Shown: positions 9,726 to 20,259, numbered from the stretch's first letter. The stretch is 64,000 nt of DNA from Balneolaceae bacterium (GCA_009711805.1 VEMX01000028.1:59307-123306), one strand, 5' to 3'. Translations and numbers: made by a program. Notes: generated by a model not told the origin, from the sequence alone.

Positions 9726-11258
9726 ATGAATGATGCAATAAAGAGAAAGCCCAGGCTGTCGTTTTGGGAAATTTGGAATATGAGCTTTGGCTTTTTGGGG
9801 ATACAGTTTGGTTTTGCCCTTCAAAATGCAAATGTAAGCCGTATTTTTGAAACCCTCGGTGCCAGCGTTGATGATATTCCCATCCTGTGGATTGCAGCTC
9901 CCTTAACCGGTTTAATTGTACAACCCATCATTGGTTACTTCAGCGATCAAACCTGGACGCGACTTGGAAGAAGGCGTCCGTATTTCCTGTTTGGAGCTAT
10001 ACTTGCATCCATTGCCCTGGTCATTATGCCCAATTCCCCGGTACTTTGGATAGCGGCCGGCATGCTCTGGATTATGGATGCCTCCATCAATGTGTCTATG
10101 GAACCTTTCCGGGCTTTTGTGGGGGATATGCTGCCATCCGAACAGCGAACAAAAGGTTTTGCCATGCAGAGCTTTTTTATAGGTACCGGAGCTGTTGTTG
10201 CTTCTCTGCTGCCCTGGATGCTGAACAACTGGCTGGGGGTGGCTAATACGGCCCCAGAGGGGATGATTCCTCCTTCCGTTAAATGGTCGTTTTACCTGGG
10301 AGCTGTTGCTTTTATAGGGGCGGTATCCTGGACGGTATACAAAACTAAAGAGTACTCGCCCGAAGAACTTGAACAGTTCGAACAAGCCGAAAAAGAAGAA
10401 ATCACTGATCCGGATGCCCTGCGAGAAGTGCCCATAGAAGCAGGAAAAGGGCAACAGAAAATGATGTTGGGGATTGTGTTTGCTGTTGTAGGTGTAATTA
10501 CTACCTACCTGACTTATACCTACCAACTGGATAAGGAAGTATATGTAGCTACCGGAGGGTTAAGCTCGGTGGGTTTGGTCGCTTTAATTGCAGGTTTTAT
10601 TCAAAAATCAGGCAAAACAAAAAATGGGTTGGTTGTGGTGATGCATGATTTTATTCACATGCCCAAAACCATGAAGCAGCTGGCGATTGTGCAGTTCTTT
10701 TCCTGGTTTGCCCTTTTTGCCATGTGGATTTATACCACATCGGGAGTAACCGCACATATTTACGGAACCAGTGATACAACCTCAGTGCTCTACAATCAAG
10801 GGGCCGACTGGGTGGGAGTGATGTTCGGTGTGTATAATGGAGTAGCCGCTATTGTAGCTTTTGGATTGGCTCCCCTGGCCAAAAAATTAAGCCGTAAGCT
10901 GGTACATGCCCTTTCCCTGATTTTAGGAGGTGCAGGCCTTATGCTCATCTATTTTATAACAGATCCTATGATGCTTATTATTTCCATGATTGGCGTGGGA
11001 ATAGCCTGGGCTTCTATCCTGGCAATGCCTTATGCTATACTGGCAGGTTCACTTCCGGCTCAGAAAATGGGGCTCTATATGGGAATCTTTAATTTCTTTA
11101 TTGTACTGCCTCAGCTGCTGGCTGCTACCATTCTGGGTTTTATAACCCGTACTTTCTTTAATGGTCAGGCAGTATATGCGCTGGTACTGGGAGGAGTTAT
11201 CATGATTGTAGCTGCTTTCAGCATGTATTTTGTAGACGATGTAGATGAAAAGAACTAA
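9726..11258 (+). CDS. MFS sugar transporter of GPH/SLC45 type (likely maltose/maltodextrin:cation symporter)
   Basis: Polytopic hydrophobic protein of 510 aa with RLGRRRPYFLFG after TM2, typical of glycoside-pentoside-hexuronide/SLC45-like carriers. It is embedded between GH13 genes. Confidence 0.85.
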   Translation: MNDAIKRKPRLSFWEIWNMSFGFLGIQFGFALQNANVSRIFETLGASVDDIPILWIAAPLTGLIVQPIIGYFSDQTWTRLGRRRPYFLFGAILASIALVIMPNSPVLWIAAGMLWIMDASINVSMEPFRAFVGDMLPSEQRTKGFAMQSFFIGTGAVVASLLPWMLNNWLGVANTAPEGMIPPSVKWSFYLGAVAFIGAVSWTVYKTKEYSPEELEQFEQAEKEEITDPDALREVPIEAGKGQQKMMLGIVFAVVGVITTYLTYTYQLDKEVYVATGGLSSVGLVALIAGFIQKSGKTKNGLVVVMHDFIHMPKTMKQLAIVQFFSWFALFAMWIYTTSGVTAHIYGTSDTTSVLYNQGADWVGVMFGVYNGVAAIVAFGLAPLAKKLSRKLVHALSLILGGAGLMLIYFITDPMMLIISMIGVGIAWASILAMPYAILAGSLPAQKMGLYMGIFNFFIVLPQLLAATILGFITRTFFNGQAVYALVLGGVIMIVAAFSMYFVDDVDEKN

Positions 11259-13077
11259 GTATTCTATAGCCATGGGAATGGAGAATATGAAAAATAGTAT
11301 TGTATTGATTTTAGCGTGTTTACTGACGACAGCCTGCTCGGGAGAACAGCAGACACAAAAACGGGCTTCGTATGATCCCCCCAAGTGGGCTGAAGGAAGA
11401 ATTTGGTATCAAATATTTCCGGAACGTTTTAGGAATGGAGATCCCTCTAATGATCCGGACAGAGCCCGGGCTCGCGGACCGGAAGGTTGGGAAATAAGTG
11501 AATGGACAACCGATTGGTATGCACGGGCTTCGTGGGAAAAGGAGGCTACGGATGATTTTTACGCTATCGTCAGAGAGCGAAGATATGGGGGAGACCTCCA
11601 GGGAGTCATCGACAAACTGGATTATTTGAAAGAACTGGGGATTGGCGGCATCTATTTCAATCCAATTTTTGATGCACAATCAATGCATAAATATGATGGC
11701 TCCTATTATCATCATATAGACCGGAATTTTGGCCCAAACCCAGAAGCTGATACTGCATTATTTAACAGGGAAGATCCGGGAGATCCTGCAAGCTGGGAGT
11801 TTTCTTCAGCTGATTCTTTATTCTTGGAATTGCTTGAAGAAGCTCATAAACGCGATATCAAAATTGTAATCGATGGAGTTTGGAATCATACCGGGACCGA
11901 GTTTTGGGCATTTCAGGATTTAGTGAAAAACCAGCAAAATTCCCCTTATAAGGAATGGTATATTGTTAATTCCTTCGACAATCCTGCTACAACGGACATC
12001 AGTGAATTTGATTATGAGGGCTGGTGGGGGTTTAAAGGTTTGCCCGTTTTCAGAGAAGAACAGGAAAACCTGGTTCGTCCAATTCGTGAGCATATTTTTG
12101 CCGTCACCCGCCGGTGGATGGACCCGAATGGAGATGGAGACCCCTCGGATGGAGTGGATGGCTGGCGGTTGGATGTAGCCTCGGAAGTGGGAAAAGAATT
12201 CTGGAAAGACTGGCATGAGTTAGTGTATCAGTTAAACCCGAAAGCCATTACTTTTGCGGAAATATGGACGGATGAAGCCAAAGAATTTATCAGCGCAGAT
12301 TTATTTACTTCTGTAATGAATTACCGTTTTGCCTATGCAGCCAAGGATTTCCTGATTGATGATCGTATTGATACGCAGAAATTTATTCGACGGCTAAATG
12401 CACTGGAAGATGAATATCCGGAAGGAAGTGTATATGTACTCCAAAATTTACTGGATAGCCATGATACGGCCCGCCTGGCATCGATGATTGTAAATCCTGG
12501 CCTGGAATACGACCGTGACGGGCATCCACGGGATGGTTTTAAAGTACGTAAACCAAACACCAAAGAAAGGAAAGTGCAGCGGTTGGTTGCCTTGTTTCAG
12601 TTTAGCTGGAGAGGAGCACCTATGATCTATTATGGAACAGAGGCCGGGATGTGGGGAGCTGATGATCCTGATGATCGTAAACCTATGGTATGGAATGATT
12701 TATCTTATGAACCCGAGTCCGTGCATCCTTTGGGTAAAGAACGTCCCCAAGACGACAATAATTTTGATGAGGAACTTTTCAAATACTACCAACAGTTAGC
12801 TGAACTGCGCACTCAATCGCAAGTATTACAGAGGGGGAGTGCTGAGTTCATCTACCAGGATGCTGCTGCAAAAGTAGTTGCCTTTCAGCGGGAACTGGAG
12901 GGGCAAAACCCGATTTATGTATTCCTGAACCGCTCAGCTGATTCCCAGTTTGTGACTATTGAACTACCTGTTGCCAAAGACGAACTAACAAACCTGATTT
13001 CAGGTGAAAGAGTGCAGCTAAAAGAAGGAACTCTTGCCTTTGAAATACCATCAGTATCTGGAGTAGTACTTCAGTAG
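11245..13077 (+). CDS. GH13 alpha-glucosidase/neopullulanase-like lipoprotein
   Basis: GH13 regions VIDGVWNHTG, DGWRLDVASEV, FAEIWT and LLDSHDTARL. A start at ATG 11287 gives MKNSIVLILACLLTTAC (lipobox). The 11245 start would overlap the MFS gene by 14 nt. Confidence 0.9.
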   Translation: MKRTKYSIAMGMENMKNSIVLILACLLTTACSGEQQTQKRASYDPPKWAEGRIWYQIFPERFRNGDPSNDPDRARARGPEGWEISEWTTDWYARASWEKEATDDFYAIVRERRYGGDLQGVIDKLDYLKELGIGGIYFNPIFDAQSMHKYDGSYYHHIDRNFGPNPEADTALFNREDPGDPASWEFSSADSLFLELLEEAHKRDIKIVIDGVWNHTGTEFWAFQDLVKNQQNSPYKEWYIVNSFDNPATTDISEFDYEGWWGFKGLPVFREEQENLVRPIREHIFAVTRRWMDPNGDGDPSDGVDGWRLDVASEVGKEFWKDWHELVYQLNPKAITFAEIWTDEAKEFISADLFTSVMNYRFAYAAKDFLIDDRIDTQKFIRRLNALEDEYPEGSVYVLQNLLDSHDTARLASMIVNPGLEYDRDGHPRDGFKVRKPNTKERKVQRLVALFQFSWRGAPMIYYGTEAGMWGADDPDDRKPMVWNDLSYEPESVHPLGKERPQDDNNFDEELFKYYQQLAELRTQSQVLQRGSAEFIYQDAAAKVVAFQRELEGQNPIYVFLNRSADSQFVTIELPVAKDELTNLISGERVQLKEGTLAFEIPSVSGVVLQ

Positions 13078-13089
13078 AATCGCCCACAT

Positions 13090-13147
13090 GGGCTTGGTTC
13101 TATGTAATGCCCCCCGATACTCGCTGTAAGACTTAAGAGAGCTTTAG
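13090..13147 (+). repeat. Copy 1 of a roughly 58-nt intergenic repeat
   Basis: gggcttggttctatgtaatgccccccgatactcgctgtaagacttaagagagctttag. The last 29 nt (13119-13147) are identical to 13477-13505. Confidence 0.85.
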
Positions 13148-13445
13148 GGTGGTCCACTACCTTAATCAGTATTGATATGGTTAGTTGCTATGAAGGCTGA
13201 GGTTGCCATATACTTTCACCTCACCTAAATCCTCTCCTGGAGGAGAGGACTTGCTGGGTAATCAATAGATTGTTTGCTCACTTTTAAGATTTTGGATTTT
13301 CTGCTTCTAAACTTATTGGAGGGTATGTACAACAATTCTTCCTCCTAAAGCAAGTCAGAGACTTGCGTGGCTACTGTCCTTAAGACAGCCCTCGCAGAAG
13401 AAGCCTAATTCATCGATCAGACCGGGGATCGGTCAGATCGGGTAC

Positions 13446-13505
13446 GGGGTTTGTTCTGTGTAATGAAACCCCGATTACTCGCTGTAAGACTTAAGAGAGC
13501 TTTAG
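13446..13505 (+). repeat. Copy 2 of the roughly 58-nt intergenic repeat
   Basis: ggggtttgttctgtgtaatgaaaccccgattactcgctgtaagacttaagagagctttag. It contains a 7-bp hairpin, ggggttt (13447-13453) with aaacccc (13467-13473). Confidence 0.85.
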
Positions 13506-13536
13506 ATTCAAAAAGTGAGGGGAAAGAATGATTATA

Positions 13537-13683
13537 TCACTGAAACTTTTTTGCCAGGCTATTTCTGAATTCTTTATTTCTGAGAACCTTCAATTCAAAA
13601 GCATTCATACTTTGTTGAATGGTTAAACTTTCTGTGCGATTTAAATCATCCAGGAAATAAGCCATTTCAATATCAGTGCCCGG
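13537..13683 (-). pseudogene. 3'-terminal remnant (about 48 codons) of a serine beta-lactamase-like paralogue
   Basis: Translates to PGTDIEMAYFLDDLNRTESLTIQQSMNAFELKVLRNKEFRNSLAKKFQ*. This aligns with the C-terminus of the intact gene at 14392-15462 (SGTDIEMAYFLDNLSSVENMSIKQSMNSFELEVLSNSSFREKLS...). Homology stops abruptly at about 13683, where repeat A1 starts. The tracked ORF 13537..13857 is a chimera of this remnant and the repeat. Confidence 0.8.
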
Positions 13684-13823
13684 TGAAATCACACTATCAA
13701 ACCAATCTCCCAGCCTTTTTTTAGTCTCTTTTTTTCTCGCAGAGGCCCGCAGATGAACCGCTGAGTTGCGCAGATGGTGCTGGAATACCGAACGGCATGA
13801 GCGTATCAACTTCAATGTGGCAT
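13683..13823 (+). repeat. Repeat A1 (141 nt), member of the ctcgcaga...gatgaaccgctgagttgcgc family
   Basis: Differs at 2 positions by eye from 14164-14304. Core sequence: tttctcgcagaggcccgcagatgaaccgctgagttgcgcagatgg...tggaataccgaacggcatgagcgtatcaacttcaatgtggcat. Confidence 0.9.
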
Positions 13824-14064
13824 CCAGGCAGTATTCATCCATGAAGATCCGGATCAAAAGACCGTAGCATTCAAACGTTCATTAAAAGGGGAAAGCCCGA
13901 TGTATGTTTTGCTGAATCGATCTGGATCTGCTCAGAGTGTTACTATTTATCTGCCTGATGCCAGGCAGGAACTCCTAAATGCCCTTACCGGAGAATCCGT
14001 TGAGCTAAATAACCAAAACCTTACCATAGAACTCCCTCTGATATCGGGTGTTATTTTGCGATGA
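13822..14064 (+). pseudogene. 3'-terminal remnant (about 80 codons) of a GH13 paralogue
   Basis: Translates to IQAVFIHEDPDQKTVAFKRSLKGESPMYVLLNRSGSAQSVTIYLPDARQELLNALTGESVELNNQNLTIELPLISGVILR*. It is colinear with the last roughly 80 aa of the 11245-13077 product (SAEFIYQDAAAKVVAFQRELEGQNPIYVFLNRSADSQFVTIELPVAKDELTNLISGERVQLKEGTLAFEIPSVSGVVLQ*). There is no start codon or upstream part of the gene. Confidence 0.8.
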
Positions 14065-14125
14065 ATTGATGTGGGTATGTGTGTGCACAGGTTAAGGCGA
14101 TATTTATTTTCTTCTCGTTGTGCCC

Positions 14126-14304
14126 CTCCGCGCAACTCCGCGTCTAACTCTGCGAAACTCTGCGTGAAATCACACTATCAAACCAATCTCCCAGCCTTTT
14201 TTTAGTCTCTTTTTTTCTCGCAGAGGCCCGAAGATGAACCGCTGAGTTGCGCAGATGGTACTGGAATACCGAACGGCATGAGCGTATCAACTTCAATGTG
14301 GCAT
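14126..14304 (+). repeat. Repeat A2, with a leader of four degenerate decamers (AACTCYGCG-type) plus the 141-nt unit
   Basis: 14126-14164 reads ctccgcgcaactccgcgtctaactctgcgaaactctgcg. It is followed by 14164-14304, which is nearly identical to A1. Confidence 0.9.
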
Positions 14305-14391
14305 TCCTAAAAACCCAATTATCCGGCCCGTAAACAACCTGACCTCCCTCCGCTAAAAACTTAATTGGGTTAACGTATTAACGCGGGCATG

Positions 14392-15462
14392 TTATTTCCC
14401 CTCAAGCATGGTCGATAGTTTCTCTCTGAACGATGAGTTGCTGAGGACTTCCAGCTCAAAACTGTTCATACTTTGTTTTATCGACATATTTTCCACAGAA
14501 GATAAGTTGTCAAGAAAATAAGCCATTTCAATATCAGTGCCCGATTTGGTAGTGGCATATAACGCCTTGGTAAGAACAAAAGCCGTAGAACCGCCCTTCA
14601 TACCTGAGTGTTCTAACCACTCTTGGTTAGCGGGATTTGTCATAACTACTTCCATAATGGGGTTTAGGGTAGCATGAACTTTCTCCGAAAAGTAGGACCG
14701 GCTGTTAATTTTGTCCATGACGGAGGTATAAGTTGAAGCTGTAGAAGCCGGTAAATGCTCAGACCATATTTTTTGGGCATCCATAGTAAGCGAGCTAAGG
14801 CTAAATTCGTTTTTCATGGAAGTGTCACTTTGAAGAGTATAGAAGACATCAGTACTTTTTTTACGATACTCATTGAGTGATAATTCCGAAGCATCGATGG
14901 TCTCATCATTAAACAGATACAGAGAGGAAATAAAAGGGTAGATGGGTTCATGATTTTTGATATCAAGACTGTCCAATCGGTTATTTACATTCTCTATACC
15001 CAGTTTCATGAGCAGAAACTCCGTATTGGCATTAGAGCTGAACCAGATCATGCCCTTTGCAACATCATGCAGAGTCACTTGTCCGTTGTTTACCAATCCT
15101 TGTTTGGTAATCATATTTAGCCAGGCAGGGTGTGTGCCTCCATCGGTATTGGGAATATAGAATCGCCTCAGTTCAGAAAGCGAGACCCTTTCACCGGGAT
15201 CTATTGTTCCGGCGGCCGCTTGTTCTGCAAACTCAACAGCTATTATGATTTTTACTGTACTTGCAAGAGGCATCATTCGATCCGCATTATAGTTTACCAG
15301 CACAGAATCATCCACAACCAAATGCAAAGATGCTTTCTCAGGATTATTCTTTATAAACTCGGCGATCTGCTTAGGAGAGGAAACGAGGTTTAGGTGAGAG
15401 GTAGTCCCTGTTATCACTATCAGTGTGGTGCAAACAGAAAGGCAAAAGAGAAATCGTTTCAT
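14392..15462 (-). CDS. Serine hydrolase, class A beta-lactamase / penicillin-binding-protein-like
   Basis: Signal peptide. SxxK motif LASTVKI, SxN motif FSSNANTEF, and a KTG-like motif MKGGST. Confidence 0.8.
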   Translation of the reverse strand: MKRFLFCLSVCTTLIVITGTTSHLNLVSSPKQIAEFIKNNPEKASLHLVVDDSVLVNYNADRMMPLASTVKIIIAVEFAEQAAAGTIDPGERVSLSELRRFYIPNTDGGTHPAWLNMITKQGLVNNGQVTLHDVAKGMIWFSSNANTEFLLMKLGIENVNNRLDSLDIKNHEPIYPFISSLYLFNDETIDASELSLNEYRKKSTDVFYTLQSDTSMKNEFSLSSLTMDAQKIWSEHLPASTASTYTSVMDKINSRSYFSEKVHATLNPIMEVVMTNPANQEWLEHSGMKGGSTAFVLTKALYATTKSGTDIEMAYFLDNLSSVENMSIKQSMNSFELEVLSNSSFREKLSTMLEGK

Positions 15463-18256: not shown

Positions 18257-19798
18257 ATGTCAGATAATCAGACCGCCGGAATTACGGCCGGGGACTTAGA
18301 TTCTTTAGAAAAGAAGAAACTCCACGAGCTGCAAACATTTGCAAAATCTTTAGGAATAAAGCGCGTAACAGGAATACGTAAAGCCCAGCTCATCGAAAAT
18401 ATTCGGGAAAAAGCTCAATCTTTAAATGCTGAAAAAAAGCATCGGGAAGAAGAAAACCAGAAGGATGGCAGAAATTCTGCAAACAAAGAAGATGAGATGA
18501 CTTCCTATGGGGGGCAAGACCATATTGTCTCTTATAAAAAGCAGGAAGAAAAGAAAGAGAATAAAAAGAAGAAATCGCACAATCGAAATACTCAGCGTCG
18601 CAAAGGGCATGAGCACAACAAGCTGCCGGAGTCGGAAGCAACTACTCTTGAAGAACGCATTGAAGAGTTAAGACCTGGTTTGGGGCCATACCTTTTTAAT
18701 GAAGGTACGCTTGAAATTTTACCCGATGGTTATGGGTTCCTCCGCTCGGTGAACTACAATTATAAAGCCAGTCCGGATGATATTTATGTATCTCCTTCAC
18801 AAATTAAACGCTTTAGACTAAAGCAGGGCGATTGTGTAATAGGGATTATCCGTCCCCCAAAAGTAGGTGAACGATATTTTGCTTTACTCCGGATTGAAGG
18901 TGTTAATGGGCGTATTCCCCATGACATGGACAATCGCAAAGATTTTGAAGACATGCTCCCCATTCACCCCGACCAGCGATTCCGCCTGGAGCATAAGTCT
19001 ACTGAATACTCTACCCGCCTCATTGATATGTTTGCTCCATTAGGAAAAGGCCAAAGGGGATTGGTAGTGGCACAGCCAAAGACAGGTAAAACCACTATTC
19101 TCCGGAATATTGCCAATGCCGTTTCTGAAAATCATCCTGATACAAAAATTATTATTGTACTGATTGATGAACGCCCGGAAGAGGTTACCGAAATGGAACG
19201 CACAGTTGAAAGTGCTGAAGTAGTTGCCTCAACCTTTGATGAAAAACCAGAAAACCATATTGGCCTTGCAGAGATTGCTTTTGAAAAAGCCAAACGACTG
19301 GTTGAAAGCGGTCATGATGTATTGCTATTGATGGATTCTATTACCCGTTTGGCACGAGCATATAATATCTGTGCATCTAACAAGGGGCGTACCATGACCG
19401 GTGGTGTTGATTCTGAAGCTCTTAAAGCTCCCCGTCAGTTATTCAGTTCTGCTCGTAATATTGAAAACGGTGGTTCGCTTACCATCCTGGCTACAGCCCT
19501 TATCGATACCGGCTCGCGTATGGATGATGTGATTTTTGAAGAATTCAAGGGTACCGGTAATATGGAAATATACCTCGATCGCCGACTCTCGGATCGTCGT
19601 TTATATCCCGCAATCGATATTTTCCGGAGTGGAACACGACGTGAAGAGTTATTGGTTGCCGAGGAAGAACGCGAGAAGATAGTACTACTTCGACGTTACC
19701 TCACCAATATGAATGCGTTTGAAGCCATGGAATTCCTGCTCGACAAAATTAAAGGAACTAAAGACAACGAAGAGTTTCTCATTTCAATGAATAAATAG
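18257..19798 (+). CDS. rho: Transcription termination factor Rho with a K/E/N-rich N-terminal insertion
   Basis: Rho N-terminal helix bundle [14 protein letters not shown]. Charged low-complexity insert of about residues 55-125. CSD-like [14 protein letters not shown]. Walker [20 protein letters not shown]. Confidence 0.95.
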
Positions 19799-20160: not shown

Positions 20161-20259
20161 GCTTTTTCTCTACAGGAAGCCGGAGCTTCTCTCCTAAAGG
20201 ATGACCATATCACAGGTTGTATTAAGAAGCCAGAGTTTCTCATCTCAATGAATAAATAG
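20161..20259 (+). pseudogene. Short diverged duplicate of the rho 3' end
   Basis: Translates to [32 protein letters not shown], compared with the rho C-terminus [27 protein letters not shown]. The last 27 nt (20233-20259) match 19772-19798 at 26 of 27 positions. Confidence 0.65.

Follow-up and report, generated by a model that had tools for sequence, protein, structure and literature searches.

A putative recombination scar between convergent GH13 and beta-lactamase-like genes in a Balneolaceae bacterium

The DNA analysed here is a stretch of 64,000 nucleotides (nt), referred to as the window, from the genome of a Balneolaceae bacterium (GCA_009711805.1, VEMX01000028.1:59307-123306; C2:59307-123306 in the contig numbering used below), a 4.08-Mb draft of 99 contigs with an estimated contamination of 0.14%. 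It contains an intact GH13 gene on the plus strand and, convergent to it, an intact gene for a beta-lactamase-like serine hydrolase (bla) on the minus strand; the 1.3-kb interval between them holds a diverged 3' remnant of each gene. A second convergent GH13/bla junction existed. While still coding for working proteins, it had come to differ from the resident junction about as much as genes from a different genus do, and a single recent event then brought the two together. Judged from its sequence, the interval appears to be a non-functional scar of recombination, left by an event of a known kind. The explanation that is tentatively preferred is an insertion-duplication of Campbell type, in which an 861-bp piece of the diverged junction would have entered through a block of 28 identical nt in bla.

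From left to right, the space between the two intact genes is occupied by a first spacer (spacer 1), the bla 3' remnant on the minus strand, a 141-nt sequence named A1, the GH13 3' remnant on the plus strand and a second spacer, which contains A2, the other copy of the 141-nt sequence (Table 1). A preliminary description, made from the sequence alone, had given the same order and orientations, and all the elements were found as described, each fragment being in direct orientation relative to its intact copy. It had assigned lengths of 460 and 327 bp to the spacers; the second, from the GH13 remnant to the intact bla, is indeed 327 nt long, while the first measures 459 nt. The two spacers had also been regarded as unrelated, and nothing in common was found between them beyond chance 14-16-mers. 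The layout had been compared with that produced by a tandem duplication or by Campbell-type integration, in agreement with the collinearity of the fragments and with the 28-nt block that brackets the insert.

Both remnants clearly resemble the intact genes and are collinear with them. The GH13 fragment (13822-14064, plus strand) aligns without gaps to residues 533-610 of the intact protein, with 39 of 78 positions identical (50%; E 3e-25). Taken alone, it reaches 30.3 bits against the Pfam profile PF16657, Malt_amylase_C (cut-off 27; profile positions 5-69 of 75), and it thus corresponds to almost exactly one whole domain, the catalytic domain being absent from it in the Pfam search. The bla fragment (13537-13683, minus strand) aligns, again ungapped, to residues 308-354, with 27 of 47 positions identical (57%; BLASTP E 5e-18); it gives no match in Pfam, because the profile stops short of the tail of the protein. 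At the nucleotide level the GH13 tails are about 60% identical and the bla tails 67%, or 59% outside the 28-nt block. The by-eye estimates of the preliminary description (about half of the positions for GH13, about 60 percent for bla) are therefore close to the measured values, and the nucleotide alignment it had proposed as a check points the same way.

The pattern of these differences is that of coding sequences. Identity at codon positions 1, 2 and 3 is 0.62, 0.77 and 0.40 for the GH13 tails and 0.57, 0.73 and 0.49 for the bla tails outside the block, and neither stops nor indels were found across the 78 GH13 and 47 bla remnant codons (125 in total). Identity of the remnants at third positions, around 0.4, is as low as that among orthologues from this genome and from the two metagenomic contigs described below, L029 and L030. 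The order of conservation (position 2 over 1 over 3), the lack of stops and gaps and the saturated third positions indicate that the copies diverged as functional genes and that the truncation is recent; they evolved under purifying selection until their synonymous sites were saturated. In their present state the remnants are predicted to be fragments without function, which an annotator could take for small genes.

Elements in this order are what a tandem duplication classically leaves behind, and a recent partial duplication in place, followed by neutral decay of both fragments, would account for them. This candidate was rejected on the basis of the 50% and 57% amino acid identities, the saturated third positions and the unrelated spacers, and it is scarcely credible: nucleotide identities of about 60% and 67% with a selection-type codon pattern, in 125 codons free of stops and indels, are not expected from it, and the true recent copies at this locus, namely A1/A2 and the 28-nt block, show 98.6-100% identity. 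The preliminary description had likewise preferred a diverged donor, or an old duplication with conversion, to a recent simple duplication, a choice favoured by the divergence under purifying selection and by the remnants being nearly as distant from the intact copy as from the nearest orthologue.

The 28-nt block, found in the bla remnant as H1 and inside the intact bla as H2, stands apart from this divergence. The two copies are exactly identical (13655-13682 and 14516-14543; 861 nt start to start), as had been reported, although the positions first given for them were shifted by 1-2 nt. Using the codon-position identities of the remaining bla tail, about 4e-5 runs of at least 28 nt are expected by chance; over its whole length, bla shares no exact run longer than 18 nt with its closest orthologue. 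The block ends precisely at the breakpoint of the bla remnant, where the joint with A1 (between 13682 and 13683) is blunt, without microhomology; at the joint between A1 and the GH13 remnant at most 4 nt (13824-13827) are ambiguous in origin. The region between the two truncated fragments (13683-13823) is filled by A1, so that two blunt joints are present, not one. Between A1 and A2 there are 2 mismatches in 141 nt (98.6% identity), between H1 and H2 none in 28, and the event is therefore young relative to the divergence of the copies. The length of the block falls within the 25-35 bp given as the minimal identical segment for RecA-mediated exchange (PMC6382021); DNA otherwise saturated with differences can be joined through such a 28-nt island of identity.

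A draft of 99 contigs rich in repeats invites the suspicion of an assembly artefact, that is, of a chimeric join of two strain variants through shared sequence. However, neither joint of A1 shares a k-mer that could mislead a graph assembler, and the longest exact repeat is below typical read length. At the two positions where A1 and A2 differ, the A1 bases occur in other copies of the repeat family to which both belong (at one of them as the consensus) and the A2 bases are unseen elsewhere; A1 and A2 are therefore physically distinct sequences. Together with the contamination estimate of 0.14%, these observations make an artefact very improbable.

An empty site is found in a relative. In the metagenomic contig L029 the GH13 gene and bla are directly convergent, separated by 71 nt with a hairpin and without any insert, and are followed by a tlpA-like gene and pabC; this is the result of the synteny comparison that had been suggested in the preliminary description. 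The L029 genes are 78% (GH13) and 60% (bla, the closest homologue) identical to the intact genes of the window. In a second metagenomic contig, L030, the tlpA-like gene, pabC, folC and rho come directly after the GH13 gene (71% identical), and bla is missing. Homologues of bla occur in 7 of 216 genomes of the family, at 47% identity or less and never beside GH13; the adjacency of the two genes was seen only in this genome and in L029. Since it is so rare and lineage-specific, the source of the remnants had the same gene order. A search for a bla paralogue across the genome found none. Several GH13 paralogues are present at the locus.

The distance of the remnants to the intact copy is about the same as that to the nearest orthologue. 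Three-way comparisons of remnant, intact tail and L029 tail give star-like identities of 50/47.5/44% for GH13 and 57/61/61% for bla. When the GH13 remnant was placed by a quick tree, it fell in a clade of four members (intact gene, remnant, L029 and P0122) with a value of 96 in the Shimodaira-Hasegawa-like approximate likelihood-ratio test (SH-aLRT) and no resolution within the clade.

In the preferred explanation, an 861-bp piece of the diverged junction, whose source was probably a relative within the Balneolaceae that had the two genes in the same arrangement, would have arrived in circular form or as some equivalent intermediate, carrying in order A1, the GH13 C-terminal domain, the spacer with the A2 unit, the bla tail and the 28-nt block. 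A single RecA-type crossover inside the block would have generated H1 and H2 as direct repeats, displacing the original bla tail to 13537-13654 and completing the intact bla with the incoming tail; spacer 1 and the displaced tail would then be native, the present bla tail imported, and the incoming GH13 C-terminal domain stranded as a fragment. The closing joint would be illegitimate and blunt, patched with A1 as a 141-nt internal copy of the neighbouring A unit, about 340 nt away. If the fragment offered no other stretch of identity and the crossover took place there, the end of the block would be expected to coincide with the truncation point, as it does.

The nearest competitor, possible but rather doubtful, is an old tandem duplication of the GH13-bla pair, long functional divergence of the two pairs and a recent deletion, with a filler templated by A2. 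The deletion would have taken away the 5' 85% of the left bla together with the promoter region, and the right GH13 would have lost its 5' 87%; the 28-nt identity would be the end that is left of a tract of gene conversion between bla paralogues. Such a history yields exactly the observed order and orientations, and it explains why everything at the locus looks native, the A2 unit included, and why the searches found no foreign donor; the small clade shared by the GH13 remnant and the intact gene, the several GH13 paralogues already at the locus and a 740-nt tandem duplication lying between A units elsewhere in the genome (C4:68656-69830) are also in its favour. Conversely, it needs two functional pairs to coexist until synonymous saturation with only 28 nt homogenised in spite of a separation of 1-2 kb, and the lineage of L029 must have lost one pair without trace, given its 71-nt spacer, unless the duplication took place just after the split; furthermore, the end of the identity tract must coincide with the deletion endpoint, a coincidence of roughly 3%. 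Insertion-duplication is preferred because of the long coexistence with almost no homogenisation and the traceless loss that the duplication would require, and because the genome holds other 3'-end duplications bracketing inserted DNA. The preference is a modest one, and both histories need an extra step for the A1 filler.

Several observations weigh against the insertion-duplication. A simple circle model does not lead one to expect the filler, hence the additional step, and neither of the filler's joints has microhomology. Among 151 genomes of the family, the top homologues of a set of 5.8 billion proteins, and genome and metagenome contigs, no donor was found that is closer to the GH13 remnant than the intact copy. 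Both bla tails are 61% identical to the L029 tail, so that the native one is not distinguishable in this comparison. The A unit of the incoming piece resembles this genome's own copies (80-89% identical), and therefore either the donor shares the family or the unit arrived later. Finally, the neighbouring genes carry no sign of foreign origin. A scan of the intact GH13 and bla for chimerism, by sliding-window identity to L029 and L030, found third positions saturated throughout and a C-terminal domain that evolves fast in every pair, and it was therefore without resolution. A foreign replacement of the whole block from bla to rho was also considered and rejected, as GH13, the tlpA-like gene and pabC keep the same relative distances to L029 and L030.

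The locus can be compared with known products of recombination. As in those of insertion-duplication mutagenesis, each side has an intact gene and a truncated copy in direct orientation, identical sequence borders the insert at both ends, and nothing but internal or 3' fragments is contained in the insert. Unlike there, the incoming copy is deeply diverged and offers the crossover just 28 nt of identity, a 141-nt filler from a neighbouring repeat occupies the closure joint, and no donor or vector is known. A tandem duplication with an internal deletion and a templated filler, of the template-switch type or that of microhomology-mediated break-induced replication (MMBIR), would give the same layout with a filler from about 340 nt away; however, this model requires a very long coexistence of functional paralogues, and there is no microhomology at the switch points. 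A short anchor of identity in a homologous gene, an illegitimate other end and a diverged donor are features shared with one-end-anchored recombination, as far as a 2002 study is reported in PMC6382021; in the classical products, recipient DNA is replaced and the anchor is not duplicated, and the illegitimate joints usually have 3-10 nt of microhomology, whereas those found here are blunt.

The repeats A1 and A2 belong to a family of about 22 loci and 40 units in the genome, 75-92% identical, mostly arranged as tandem intergenic arrays with a period of 200-230 nt (e.g. C4:89552-90331, C10:13485-14185 and C22:31633-32768). An alignment of 41 units shows three parts in a full A unit: degenerate decamers that make up a 41-nt leader, a core that is conserved and a 3' part that varies. 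The unit bearing A2 is full length, with family matches that start at 14123 and reach about 14355-14357. A1 lacks the 41-nt leader and ends on its right side about 50 nt before the unit end. The 141-nt repeat lies at the novel joint, as first proposed; the preliminary description had missed that its family is spread over the genome and that A1 is no more than an internal piece of one unit. A scan of 12800-14600 against Rfam with E up to 1 gave no match. Matches of 45 nt resembling the A core (83-88% identical) extend to other genera and even to a different family of the same order, and the motif is therefore old and possibly functional. The 740-nt tandem duplication at C4:68656-69830 contains an open reading frame (ORF) of 142 amino acids, the copies being 98.6% identical, and has A units on both sides; it is an example of repeat-mediated gene duplication.

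The association of A units with duplicated gene ends recalls phage 21 and e14, which integrate into icd of Escherichia coli and bring a replacement 3' end. The succession of gene body, core, incoming 3' end, insert, core and displaced original 3' end as a pseudogene fragment is the same at the bla locus; unlike in those cases, no integrase or element genes were recognised here, and the insert is a piece of the homologous neighbourhood that includes the 3' end of the convergent neighbour. A second site in the window is of interest in this respect, since the last 27 nt of rho (19772-19798) recur with one mismatch at 20233-20259, around a 434-nt insert with two A units; the sequence before the second repeat copy is only faintly rho-like. 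The 833-nt insert at bla and the 434-nt insert behind rho might then be small non-autonomous mini-elements flanked by att-like sites and linked to the A repeats. Such elements would use a core of about 27-28 nt to enter the 3' ends of genes, supplying a new tail in place of the old one.

Two inserts with A units lie 5.2 kb apart, with direct repeats of 28 and 27 nt overlapping gene 3' ends; the 9-mer CATTTCAAT is all that the bla and rho repeats have in common, with the same orientation towards the A units in both, and the conserved portion of the A-unit 3' part carries A(T/C)TTCAAT(A/G)T, similar to CATTTCAAT. Other 3'-end duplications elsewhere in the genome also bracket inserts with cargo. 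The match of the 9-mer, however, was noticed post hoc (p roughly 1e-3), flanking repeats of this kind are found at 2 of the 22 A-family loci and not at the other 20, and there are neither terminal inverted repeats nor hybrid joints at the shared motif. The hallmarks of a miniature inverted-repeat transposable element (MITE) or an insertion sequence (IS) are likewise lacking, with no inverted repeats at the insert ends and A1 only an internal fragment of a unit. No recombinase gene was recognised in the 833-nt insert, whose ORFs were not searched against protein families; they are all short, the longest lying wholly inside having 62 amino acids, in addition to a read-through of 106 amino acids from A1 into the bla remnant, and the genes that flank the insert are GH13, bla, the tlpA-like gene and pabC. 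Similarity in the rho-like tail is very weak, against 88% conservation in the rest of rho, and a GH13 fragment inside the insert suits a piece of a homologous locus and not a mobile element. Mini-elements of this kind are thus quite unlikely at these two sites, and slightly more so is the general proposal that A arrays mark small integrase-less elements entering gene 3' ends, as at bla and rho, through a core of about 27-28 nt that contains CATTTCAAT. If this were true, the A arrays would not be passive: the elements would import replacement tails, along with pieces of adjacent genes, out of other lineages, and a repeat-associated exchange of 3' ends would operate in Balneolaceae.

The idea that duplicated gene tails accompany every A-family array was rejected, since they do so at 2 of the 22 loci only. 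A genome-wide scan for remnants of gene tails returned a handful of unrelated cases without a common mechanism. At C2:16264-18956 and C20:6333-8996, duplicated gene 3' ends (94 nt at 95% and 137 nt at 98% identity) surround inserts of 2.4-2.6 kb with two or three ORFs each, and a decayed remnant of a murA-like tail is found at C32:19799-19891.

Table 1. Features of the interval between the intact GH13 and bla genes, with positions counted from the first nucleotide of the window
Feature	Position	Strand	Remarks
Intact GH13 gene	11245-13077	+	ORF, 610 aa; Pfam Alpha-amylase and Malt_amylase_C
GH13 C-terminal domain (intact copy)	12835-13077	+	aa 531-610
Spacer 1	13078-13536		459 nt, dispersed repeat families; D3 repeat pair, spacing 358
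206-nt unit of spacer 1	13090-13295		97% identical to C11:47583-47788
Second module of spacer 1	13296-13394		Dispersed repeat
REP-like palindromic motif	13404-13455		33 genomic copies; CAGACCGGTGATCGGTCAGATCGGGTACGGGG
Start of second unit in spacer 1	13444-13508		Dispersed repeat
bla-like 3' remnant, diverged part (tail') including stop codon	13537-13654	-	46% aa identity to intact tail outside H
H1	13655-13682	-	28-nt block identical to H2; 5' end of bla remnant, codes GTDIEMAYF
A1	13683-13823	+	141-nt internal fragment of A-family unit
GH13 3' remnant with own stop codon	13824-14064	+	BLASTP E 3e-25; PF16657 30.3 bits
Unique spacer, GH13-remnant stop to A2 unit	14065-14122		No second genomic copy
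Full A-family unit	14123 to ~14355	+	Leader 14123-14163, core A2 14164-14304, then 3' part
Current bla tail	14392-14515	-	3' end of intact gene, beyond H2
Intact bla-like serine hydrolase	14392-15462	-	ORF, 356 aa; Pfam Beta-lactamase2
H2	14516-14543	-	Inside intact bla

Spacer 1, with 153 BLASTN matches in the genome, is an array of other repeat families, another point missed in the preliminary description. Its motif resembling repetitive extragenic palindromes (REP-like; CAGACCGGTGATCGGTCAGATCGGGTACGGGG) is found at 32 further sites of the genome, for instance C8:46643-46687 and C27:51205-51252. At six contig ends (C10, C11, C14, C15, C48 and C96) one sequence of about 119 nt adjoins the motif, suggesting a multi-copy IS that inserts specifically into it and interrupts the assembly. 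Elsewhere in the genome, a CRISPR-like array (clustered regularly interspaced short palindromic repeats) is located at C55:3300-6800, with at least 30 copies of a 36-37-nt repeat, AATCTAAATCATCTCGAAAAGAGTTCAAACCACAAC, at a period of about 66 nt.

The product of the intact bla scores 60 bits against the PF13354 profile and is, by sequence, a class A-type beta-lactamase or serine hydrolase; its nearest homologue is 60% identical. In comparison with L030, the gene is an insertion into a conserved neighbourhood composed of GH13 genes, an MFS transporter, GH13, the tlpA-like gene, pabC, folC and rho. The closest homologues outside L029 come from other orders of Bacteroidota, which suggests that bla may have been acquired horizontally. 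The locus marks bla as a lineage-specific insertion in a conserved neighbourhood of starch utilisation and pabC-folC-rho. The sole consequence of the scar itself would be a pair of direct repeats able to delete the insert again. The locus reveals neither a new function nor a new kind of system; it offers a clean, datable case of recombination between deeply diverged homologous loci in the little-studied Balneolaceae.

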